Of a stretch of 64,000 nucleotides of DNA, positions 22,210 through 25,200 are shown in pieces. Location: NCBI GenBank assembly GCA_041661745.1, contig JBAZTR010000004.1, forward strand, positions 76,999-140,998. The letters are read 5' to 3'. Below the pieces are notes generated by a model. It made no database searches and was not told the origin of the DNA. It saw only the letters and a list, made by a program, of their open reading frames with translations. Each line of letters starts with the position of its first letter. Positions within the stretch are counted from its first letter, which is position 1. This stretch comes from Patescibacteria group bacterium (GTDB lineage: Bacteria > Patescibacteriota > Patescibacteriia > UBA9934 > GWF2-40-263). The position numbers and the translations under genes were made by a program.

Positions 22210-25200
22210 TTAGTAATTGGCAATCACCGTATCCCAATCTTGATCATTGGCAGCCACCAGGTCATCGCCGAAACAGTAGCTGGACCAGAAGGCTTCGGAG
22301 ACGTCTTTGACGATTCTGGCCCAGTCTGTGCCATACATGTCAATGGCCAGTTCTTCGGAGGTTAACCAGCGGAGGCAACCTTCGGAATCAATGGCATAGA
22401 CTTTGGTAATGGAAGGAAACTTCACTAGGGTTGAACCGGGGCGATAAGTCACCATGGGGCCGAGTGGAATGTTGGACATGGTGGTTGAGTCGATGGTCTT
22501 GATGCCATAGAAGGTGGAGAACCAGGATTTGTAGACCTGTTCGTTGGGAAAAGCGTGACGACGCTCATCAACACCGATGTAATAGACAGCGGAATCGAAT
22601 TGGGTAGTCGGATCGCCGTCATCAAACAACTTAACCAAGGTACCAATCGAGACTTCCTCCGGCAGGTCCGGGAAGATTTCCCAGACGCCGTTCTTTTCGG
22701 CCTCGCTAACCCAGCGGTCACCAAGAACGCTTTCCAGAGCCATACCAATGACGCTGATTTCCTCTTCAATTTCCTCTTCGGTCGGGATCTCTTCGGCTGG
22801 TAGTTCTTCTTCAACCGGGGTTTCGGTGAAGAGAGTGGTGAAAGGAATTATGTCAGAGGTTAGGACAGAGGCGAGATCGGTCCCTTCGATTCTGATGAAG
22901 CCGTTGGTGACAGATTGGTTGGGGATGGACCAATAATAAGAGCCGGAGTTGGTTAGGTTGTCTTCAATTGTTTGATAAGTGACTCCGTTGTCAGTGGAAT
23001 AGGCTAAGTTAACAAAACCAAAGGTGCCGGTCGAAGACCAGGTGATGGTTTTAAAGGAACCGGCGATTAGTTGTTCGTTATCGGTTGGTGAAGTGAGATT
23101 AATTGTGTTGGAGACTGAGCCACCGCCAGTTGAGGGTGGTTGGCTCCTAGGATCATTAGCAGCAATAGTTATAAGACCAGTGGTATCAGAAATTGTGGCA
23201 TTGGTCGGACTGGAAAGGGTTAAATTAACGGTTTCACTGACTTCTGTAATAGCTTCATCGGTAATGGCAACAGTGAAAGTTTTGTCGCCAGTGGCATCGG
23301 CGGCCCAGGTGAGGGTGCCAGAGGTGGCCGTGAAGTCTGTACCTGAAATAGCTGTGCCGCTGGAGGTGGCATAATCAACGGTGACGCCGAGATAACTGCC
23401 GCCGGTCATGGTGACAGTGACAGTGGCATTGCCAACACTTTCAGAAACCGAGGTGTCGGCAATGGCAATGGTTGGGGCGGCGTCGTTGTCGGTAATAGTG
23501 GCGGTGTGAACATCAGTCGCGCCTTTAGTTCCATTGGTTGGACTGCCCATGGTGACAATGACAGTCTCTGATAGTTCATCAATAACATCATCAACAACGG
23601 TTATTGTAATGTCCCCGGTGGTGTTGCCAGCGGTGATGACTAGAGGACTGGCGGTAATGGTGTAGTCGGAAGTTGCGGTGGCTGTGCCGGTTATGGTGTA
23701 TGGAATGGTGACATCAAGAGCATAGGAAAATAACAGTTGAGCAGTGATAGTTAGGGTGCCGGCTGATTCCGCGCCAGTTTGGCTGTCTGAGGTCCAATTA
23801 ACCGTGGGAATACCTAAATCAGTTGTTTCTGAGGTCGAGGCGATTGTGACTTCGTTGTTATAACCATCGACGGCCCAAATTTTGACGTAATAAGTGGTGT
23901 CGTCGTCGAGACTGGTGATTTGTGTGGTAGCTGTGGTCATGGTGGCTAAAGCCGCGTCATCGCTGGTGTCCCACTCGGCCGCGGTGCCAGTTCGGCCATC
24001 AACGTCAGAAGAATTTGTCCCATACCAGAGTTCGTAGTGGTTGAAATTTGTTTCAGAGGTGACAGCGGTCCAGGTTAGAGTTAAGGAATCGGCCGGATGA
24101 GCGGTAACGGCAAGACTGGCCATGCCCGAAGGATCGGCGTTATCCATGACGAAATCGGAAGAACCTTGAACTGAGCCGGCTTCCCCGCCGTCGTATGGGG
24201 TAATACGAATGCGGGCGTTGGAAACATCGGCCGTCGGAACATCTGTTGCTGAGCTCCATACAAAAGAAATTGTATTAGCACCAGAGGTTGTGGTGACATC
24301 ACTGATTTGATATGTCGAAGCGTTGTTAACCGCCGGAGTTCCATATGTCCCGGAAAGATCAGCCGGAGTAGTGGAAAGGGTTGGATCGCCCCAGGCCCCG
24401 CCGCCGTTTGTAGAGTATTCGACTTTAAAAGAAGAGGTCTGATCATCAGCATCGTCGATTATAACCGTAACAGTTGTTCGACCAGTGCCATCGGTGGCAA
24501 AAGTTGGGGTCACAGTTGCTGCCGTTGGCAAGCCGTTGGTTTTTTGCGAGGTGGCGGCAATTGTTGCTTCGTTTCCATAATCATCAACCGACCAAATCTT
24601 TACATAATATGTTGTATTTTGTGAAAGACTGGTAACGGTTGTGGTAGCTGTGGTCATGGTCGCAAGGGTGGCATCATTATCGTTATCCCATTCAGCAGCT
24701 GTACCGGTACGATTTCCGACATCGGAAGAATTGGTGCCATACCAAAGTTCGTAGTGATCAAAATGTGTTTCAGAGCTCACTGCGGTCCAGGTTAGAGTCA
24801 AAGAAGAGGAAGGATATGTCGTGACAGCAAGATCAGCGAGACCAACAGGATCTACGTTGTCAAGGACAGAATCAACGCTTGAAACAGGAGAACTAACGGA
24901 AGTTCCGTCATAAGCAGTTACCCGGAAACGGGCATTGGAAATATCGCCGGCCGGTTCATCTATTTGAGAATTCCAAATCCATGTGATGGTATTTGCTCCG
25001 GAGACAGTGGTGACGTTGATAATTTGATAAGTACCATCATTCTCTACGACCGGGGTATCGTAGGTGGCGGTCACATCGGCCAAATCTTCGGAAAGCGTTG
25101 GATCTTCCCAAGTACCACCGCCATCCATGGAATATTCGATTTTAAGTTGAATTAAGTTGTCATCCGAGTCATCAACAATCGTCGCACCTAACACTTCACC

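Follow-up and report, generated by a model that had tools for sequence, protein, structure and literature searches.

A repeat module shared by a giant secreted protein and an M23 lipoprotein of a Patescibacteria group bacterium belongs to a very large uncurated family with a predicted EccB-repeat-like fold

The stretch of 64,000 nucleotides that we analysed (the window) lies on contig JBAZTR010000004.1 of a Patescibacteria group bacterium. Two of its proteins, a giant secreted protein of 2284 aa (22210..29064, minus strand) and an M23 lipoprotein of 610 aa counted from its ATG (61884..63716, minus strand), share the same kind of module, and the copies of this module are homologous. The first-pass annotation of the window had suggested a repeat common to the two proteins, and the suggestion is borne out by BLASTP, by reciprocal searches with hidden Markov models (HMMs), by shuffling and by hhalign; the peptides that it quoted and both open reading frames (ORFs) are indeed present in the translations. 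The idea that the module is peculiar to these two proteins does not hold, since it is among the commonest uncurated domains of Patescibacteria. It forms a very large family of the Candidate Phyla Radiation (CPR) and a new surface cassette that resembles, in its predicted fold, the repeats of EccB from mycobacterial type VII secretion. As to function, we consider non-covalent anchoring or targeting to the wall zone a little more probable than improbable.

The unit that we compared is a single copy of the module, 60-70 aa long. In a BLASTP comparison, the last 229 aa of the giant protein match the M23 protein with 15/33 identities (E 4e-5). We then built an HMM of the giant-type domain on 150 database relatives and searched it against the window's 717 six-frame ORFs (40 aa or longer): it found the giant protein itself (E 3e-62), and the sole other match below E 0.1 was the M23 protein (E 0.005). 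The same HMM matches other members of the M23 family (E 1e-9 to 1e-5), whose repeat 1 can be aligned with either half of the giant domain; it follows that the giant domain is an internal duplication. The reciprocal search, with an HMM of repeat 1 of the M23 family from which the window's own sequence had been excluded, again returned only the M23 protein and the giant protein (E 3.1e-5, both sub-repeats) among the window ORFs. The annotation was prepared to drop the similarity if a profile alignment of the two C-termini gave E > 1; hhalign of giant sub-repeat B with M23 repeat 1 gives a probability of 97% and E 1e-10, that of sub-repeat A with M23 repeat 1 gives 90% and E 1.6e-6 over 54-58 columns in two independent runs, and that of M23 repeat 1 with M23 repeat 2 gives 96.8% and E 3e-10.

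It could be argued that two short peptides look alike by chance or because of their composition. Indeed the pairwise match spans 33 residues only, and sub-repeats A and B of the giant protein, if compared directly by hhalign, are not significantly similar (E 0.12). We find this explanation hardly credible in view of the reciprocal HMM searches, the profile-profile comparisons and the shuffle test, in which the real C-terminus of the giant protein scored 29.4 bits and the best of its 5000 shuffled versions 11.1; the predicted topology of the copies is, moreover, identical, and their fold matches in PDB are exclusively the same. Sub-repeats A and B are linked by way of M23 repeat 1, at the level of sequence profiles, and by their predicted fold. 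The signature of the module can be written as G-x-L-V-K ... V-Y-x-I ... G-x-(K/R)-R-x-I-x-N-E-x-(V/I)-F.

The arrangement of the copies differs between the two proteins, and the annotation's description of a tandem C-terminal repeat with a unit of about 55 aa has to be amended accordingly: the unit is about 60-70 aa long, and the placement is right for the giant protein, which ends in two tandem copies, and wrong for the M23 protein. In the giant protein (all features of both proteins are on the minus strand; this layout was read from the ORF list, the translation and Pfam matches to G8, fn3 and Calx-beta) a Sec signal peptide at aa 1-37 (MALKRNN...TLAAA) is followed by G8/beta-helix-like repeats, fn3-like domains, two Calx-beta domains, a Glu/Pro-rich acidic linker (aa 2080-2105, 22750..22827) located about 30 residues N-terminal of the module, and the C-terminal module itself. 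Sub-repeat A occupies aa 2138-2205 (22450..22653), as supported by the AlphaFold2 model and by hhalign with M23 repeat 1, and sub-repeat B, the copy quoted by the annotation (RPGSTLVKFPS...), occupies aa 2206-2269 (22258..22449), on the evidence of BLASTP, hhalign and AlphaFold2. The two have a period of 68-70 aa and together make up a compact domain of about 147 aa. Behind them lies a tail, aa 2270-2284 (22213..22257), with a predicted helix at residues 160-165 of the 167-aa model. Only sub-repeat A has an acidic loop between strands 1 and 2 (aa 2145-2155, 22600..22632), which is conserved in the family alignment as DDG(D/N)PxTQxDS, the giant protein having DDGDPxTQxDS; judged by its sequence, it looks like a metal-binding (Ca2+) loop.

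The M23 protein starts with a lipoprotein signal (lipobox LVAC). Together with the Sec signal peptide of the giant protein this agrees with the annotation's view that both proteins are extracellular, or rather extracytoplasmic. Then follow the Peptidase_M23 domain (PF01551) at aa 78-161 (E 9.4e-14; 51.8 bits against a gathering cut-off of 28.7), the repeat region at aa 213-403, a Cys-rich segment, a D-T/D-S linker and a C-terminal domain of 130 aa (aa 481-610, 61887..62276). Repeat 1 (LWHPDGTLVKVPSSPDVYLIEDGARRWLRNEDIFWSYGYNF..., aa 213-273, 62898..63080) was recognized by BLASTP, hhalign, HMM search and AlphaFold2, and repeat 2 (FRDGAILKEDSHSDVYVITGGVAAPVLDWNTYLLAGYY..., aa 342-403, 62508..62693) by hhalign with repeat 1 and by AlphaFold2. 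Both are central and not adjacent, with about 70 residues between them. This interval may hold a degenerate third copy (aa 277-320, 62757..62888), to which AlphaFold2 assigns the secondary structure strand-strand-strand-helix; at the sequence level this segment matches neither repeat 1 nor repeat 2. About 100 relatives of the M23 protein were retrieved, again from Uhrbacteria/Patescibacteria and with 35-77% identity, and in the alignment of 98 family sequences both repeats, the Cys-rich segment and the GDHLHYGRHEG segment are kept. The 130-aa C-terminal domain is weakly conserved within the family and has a sub-threshold match to CFSR, the collagen-flanked surface repeat (E 1e-3).

The search for other carriers, which the annotation had proposed, gave two very different answers: the giant and M23 proteins alone among the 717 window ORFs, and thousands of proteins in the databases. 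When the giant C-terminus was used in a word-indexed search for homologues, a single relative came back. The size of the family became apparent only in an exhaustive HMMER search of 1.84 billion cluster representatives (50% identity), which yielded 4531 proteins at E <= 1e-3, of which 1401 remain at E <= 1e-30. We examined architectures in the best 150 of the 4531 matches (203-2854 aa, 153 domain instances). In 118 of the 153 instances the giant-type domain stops no more than 5 aa short of the C-terminus, it is internal with more than 50 aa downstream in nine of the 150 proteins, and in six it is N-terminal, directly after the signal peptide; at genome loci it lies within 25 aa of the stop codon in 79/100 instances. 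A hydrophobic, signal-like N-terminal segment is present in 112 of 137 full-length (Met-starting) carriers. The sources named in a profile search that reports names and Pfam content were 'Patescibacteria group' and 'Candidatus Uhrbacteria'. The partner domains among the 120 proteins listed by this search are of extracellular types: Big_1/Invasin_D3 (36), SH3_3 (8), He_PIG (4), PG_binding_1 (3), VCBS and cupredoxin; none of these Pfam matches in the 120 proteins overlaps the module itself. In conservation the domain is far above its passengers: across 38 diverse members the mean column identity is 54%, and 11 residues are invariant. In species-representative genomes one peptide pattern alone led to 278 confirmed loci, overwhelmingly in metagenome-assembled genomes (MAGs) of Patescibacteria/Uhrbacteria, and 2-4 carrier genes lie within 12 kb in 15 of 79 loci.

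Some domain-bearing contigs have unexpected titles. Many are called 'uncultured Gammaproteobacteria bacterium' (our loci L003, L007, L009, L063 and others); they are MAGs from bulk co-assembly and include a 1.0-Mb chromosome. A few others are titled Vicinamibacterales or Victivallales (among L076 and L080). In all these cases the title is probably a placeholder, or the contig a mis-binned piece of a CPR genome. Among 50,697 phage genomes, tblastn with the giant C-terminus found no match, and with the M23 repeat region it found marginal matches to Streptomyces phages (E ~0.1) in which the motif is visible. Gene 47 of Streptomyces phage Emma1919 (L083 3773..4177), which encodes a hypothetical protein of 134 aa and lies one gene after a large minor tail protein gene, has the same motif, GFRDGTLIRNQADKKDYLISRGLKRHIVSPDVFEKYGL...VVSDEE. 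Foldseek likewise matches small actinophage proteins (Rhodococcus phage Weasels2, Streptomyces phage LukeCage).

No curated family describes the module. The Pfam search suggested for the repeat was run and gave no family match; Pfam and NCBIfam scans at E <= 10 produced only sub-threshold noise (AstE_AspA_hybrid, CBD_PlyG, CFSR), the profiles of SLH, CW_binding_2, LysM, SH3_3/5, GW, PG_binding_1 and SPOR giving no match in these scans, and the last ~147 aa of the giant protein are equally without a match in both collections. Sequence searches of PDB with both family profiles gave spurious hits only (a nanobody 'DTAVYYC', alpha-actinin, haemagglutinin). We found no literature describing the domain or linking EccB with Patescibacteria.

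It is the predicted structure that provides a connection to known proteins. AlphaFold2, run with family alignments, modelled the giant C-terminus (167 aa) with a pLDDT of 90.2 and a predicted template modelling score (pTM) of 0.80, and aa 196-428 of the M23 protein with a pLDDT of 91.8 and a pTM of 0.87. In these models each clear copy has the order strand-strand-strand-helix-strand-helix, so that the predicted fold of the module is a small four-stranded sheet packed by two helices. When the M23 region was compared with PDB by Foldseek, the top 11 matches were all EccB1, EccB3 or EccB5 (best E 4e-5, probability 0.98), the next match having E 0.18; for the giant domain the top 10 were all EccB (best E 0.014, probability 0.87). 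Template modelling scores (TM-scores) against EccB reach no more than 0.2-0.3, the match being confined to the repeat units and not extending to their global arrangement. The fold of the EccB repeat has been described in just these terms, as about 55 aa with a four-stranded sheet and two helices (PMC4769845). The EccB repeats R1-R4 (type VII/ESX; PF05108; PDB 4KK7, 3X3M, 5CYU, 6SGY, 7NP7) are units of about 55-65 aa, and like our module they occur in several copies per protein, outside the membrane in the wall zone. The differences are also considerable. The module proteins have neither the EccB central core domain nor its N-terminal transmembrane helix, the giant protein having instead a cleavable signal peptide and the M23 protein a lipobox; there are no ESX genes nearby, the neighbours being type IV secretion-like; and the module serves here as a cassette at the end of adhesins or as an addition to a peptidase. 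The EccB family profile itself, PF05108 (T7SS_ESX1_EccB), does not match the window sequences or 38 family members at E <= 10.

What could such a module do? In our view its copies, 60-70 aa each, go back to one ancient extracytoplasmic repeat. In the giant type two of them are fused into the ~147-aa domain, a cassette that is standard for secreted adhesin-like proteins in Patescibacteria, especially in Uhrbacteria, and nearly always C-terminal; in the M23 type two or three copies lie next to the catalytic domain. We propose that the module would bind a conserved component of the wall zone non-covalently, peptidoglycan or a wall-linked polymer (both the binding function and the ligand are what we infer). 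It would thereby keep large surface proteins attached to the cell that produces them, and it would bring the M23 endopeptidase to its substrate next to the type IV secretion apparatus, the operon of which starts with the M23 gene.

Several observations are consistent with this proposal. The module has a modular terminal position, at either end, in secreted proteins with variable passengers, and it is attached to a peptidoglycan hydrolase. Modular anchors such as SLH can also sit N-terminally after a signal peptide, and M23 enzymes often carry wall-targeting domains, such as SH3b in lysostaphin and LysM in NlpD. In general SLH, CWB2, LysM, SH3b, GW and PG_binding_1 are likewise tandem repeats (50-90 aa) that occur at either terminus, with variable passengers and on hydrolases; what sets our module apart from them is the lack of any sequence match and a different predicted topology. 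The strong conservation of the domain as compared with its passengers suggests a conserved ligand belonging to the cell itself. Finally, the EccB repeats, its sole structural relatives, are located in the wall zone, and a weak likeness of theirs to a proven wall binder has been published.

On the other hand, there are a number of points that weigh against wall binding. Among the leading fold matches, the ESX-5 structures 7np7 and 7nps are titled as a periplasmic assembly, and the periplasmic domains of EccB5 contact each other in the ESX-5 protein assembly; in our opinion, a protein-protein role would be equally compatible with the fold. Some small proteins pair the module with PG_binding_1 or SH3_3, which would be redundant if all of these bound peptidoglycan. 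The relation to EccB is itself not significant at the sequence level: hmmsearch and hhalign against EccB1 (a sequence 100% identical to residues 24-424 of PDB 3X3M) and against three more sequences taken from printed alignments, namely EccB1 of Mycobacterium smegmatis, EccB3 and EccB5, gave probabilities of 1-5% and E 0.008-0.3. The weak alignments are in register with EccB1 R1 and R4, e.g. YYIDPQGVRYGVPN vs VYYIGADGRRHAFPN. We therefore describe the relation as a fold-level resemblance of the models with a suggestive motif in common, for which common descent is plausible. Furthermore, peptidoglycan binding by the EccB repeats is a bare hypothesis in the source describing them (PMC4769845). 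PlyCB (PDB 4F87), the wall-binding subunit of the streptococcal phage lysin PlyC and the protein to which the EccB repeats were weakly likened, is absent from the top 50 Foldseek matches of both models.

If the module does not bind a glycan, its repeats may oligomerise or dock on another envelope protein such as a surface layer (S-layer), a pilus or the type IV apparatus, acting as a protein-protein assembly module in the way that EccB does in ESX complexes. That the only structural relatives are EccB repeats fits this well, as does the packing of the two sub-repeats into one unit (pTM 0.80). The M23 gene, besides, heads the type IV operon in 5/5 loci (the window and four other contigs, namely L001, L082 and two Joint Genome Institute (JGI) contigs). 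Nevertheless we regard an assembly role, the strongest of the rival readings, as unlikely: the cassette is found on thousands of unrelated passengers, most of the 79 loci hold a single carrier gene (an adjacent dedicated partner gene was not sought), and a domain joined to a peptidoglycan hydrolase more typically serves to target the substrate.

A second thought is that the repeats recognise not the producer but the envelope of a host bacterium. The Patescibacteria that have been cultivated live as epibionts, a way of growth for which their type IV cluster is essential (PMC12102498); the motif also turns up in small proteins of Streptomyces phages whose genes directly follow those of minor tail proteins, where host-wall recognition is to be expected. 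Host-recognition domains usually vary, and the module is highly conserved in thousands of proteins from many lineages; it stands at the terminus opposite the variable adhesin-like domains; and the M23 protein is lipid-anchored to the membrane of its producer. Hence host adhesion appears to us distinctly unlikely. The frequency with which the domain closes a protein, within 5 aa of the C-terminus or 25 aa of the stop codon in the counts given above, brings to mind yet another possibility, a C-terminal sorting or secretion signal, perhaps removed, like the C-terminal domain (CTD) of type IX secretion. We judge this very unlikely given that the domain can be N-terminal (6/150) or internal (9/150) and is mid-protein in the whole M23 family, and that the carriers examined all have ordinary Sec or lipoprotein signals.

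Non-covalent attachment to the wall zone is therefore the reading that we prefer. One may go further and suppose that the two-copy C-terminal domain is the general non-covalent anchoring cassette of Uhrbacteria-like Patescibacteria, a counterpart of SLH that shares its ancestry with the EccB repeat; we find this extension possible, though on the doubtful side. If it were true, the cassette would mark the complete anchored surface proteome of uncultivated epibionts, small proteins that pair the domain with PG_binding_1 or SH3_3 would be bridges between the envelope of the epibiont and the wall of the host, and the M23 copies would place a wall-cutting enzyme at the type IV secretion apparatus.

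A targeting domain common to two envelope proteins is not surprising in itself. The domain deserves attention, in our opinion, because it sits, strongly conserved, in thousands of secreted proteins of Patescibacteria, and neither Pfam nor NCBIfam has a match for it. A large part of bacterial diversity belongs to Patescibacteria, nearly all of which are uncultivated. For such organisms the domain predicts which proteins are displayed on the cell, and it offers a small foldable fragment for work on binding and localisation. The link to EccB is useful in both directions, since a ligand found for the module or for the EccB repeats could inform the other.

The surroundings of the M23 gene give it a more definite context. 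Downstream of it lie type IV secretion-like genes (53730..61316, minus strand), recognized by Pfam in the window and by the gene order in the four other contigs: in the window a 918-aa protein, a 552-aa protein, PrgI/TraC-like genes and a VirB4/TraG-type ATPase of 676 aa (53730..55760, minus strand; Pfam P-loop_TraG, AAA_10, DUF87). The order is M23, a protein of ~900 aa, one of ~580 aa, PrgI, TraC-like, VirB4/TraG ATPase and two small genes, and it persists even where the M23 orthologues have 35-46% identity. The combination of PrgI (VirB3-like), TraC-like and VirB4/TraG P-loop ATPase genes by which the Patescibacteria type IV cluster is recognized is present. In Southlakia epibionticum this cluster, monoderm and conjugation-like, is essential for epibiotic growth, and so are the peptidase and lysozyme genes beside virB4 (PMC12102498). 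Because of the synteny, we think that the M23 protein is probably a wall-remodelling enzyme of the type IV secretion apparatus, and hence a candidate component of a system without which a cultivated relative cannot grow as an epibiont. In this it is like VirB1, PrgK and TcpG, the type IV-associated peptidoglycan hydrolases, and like the peptidase and lysozyme encoded next to virB4 in Southlakia epibionticum; unlike them, its catalytic domain is M23 rather than a lytic transglycosylase or CHAP, and EccB-like repeats have no prior description in type IV-associated hydrolases. The giant proteins encoded upstream of M23 in L001 and L082 are without the C-terminal module domain.

The annotation called the M23 protein foreign by its GC content. 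Its composition is indeed odd, with GC 0.62 and a GC content at third codon positions (GC3) of 0.80, against 0.29-0.46 in nine other window genes, and the boundaries of the shift coincide with the ends of the gene. A recent horizontal transfer is an insufficient explanation, since the orthologues are syntenic and also GC3-elevated: in L001 (10001..12043), from a genome of ~40% GC, GC3 is 0.49 against 0.23-0.35, and in L082 (10001..11848), from a genome of ~57% GC, it is 0.91 against 0.63-0.79. The family is thus native to the lineage, and the unusually high GC3, seen in all three genomes, is a gene-specific trait common to it. The M23 gene is overlapped on the plus strand by an antisense ORF of 618 aa (61878..63734), whose product is of low complexity, with much V, G, R and A; we are almost certain that this ORF results from the very high GC3 of the M23 gene and is not a gene itself.

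Between the M23 gene and the gene of the 918-aa protein lies a small, very AT-rich gene (61392..61700, minus strand; GC 0.33) that is DUF559 endonuclease-like. At the same spot L001 has a gene of the 23S_rRNA_IVP family (12147..12515), and the other loci have none; this gap may be a landing site for small selfish genes.

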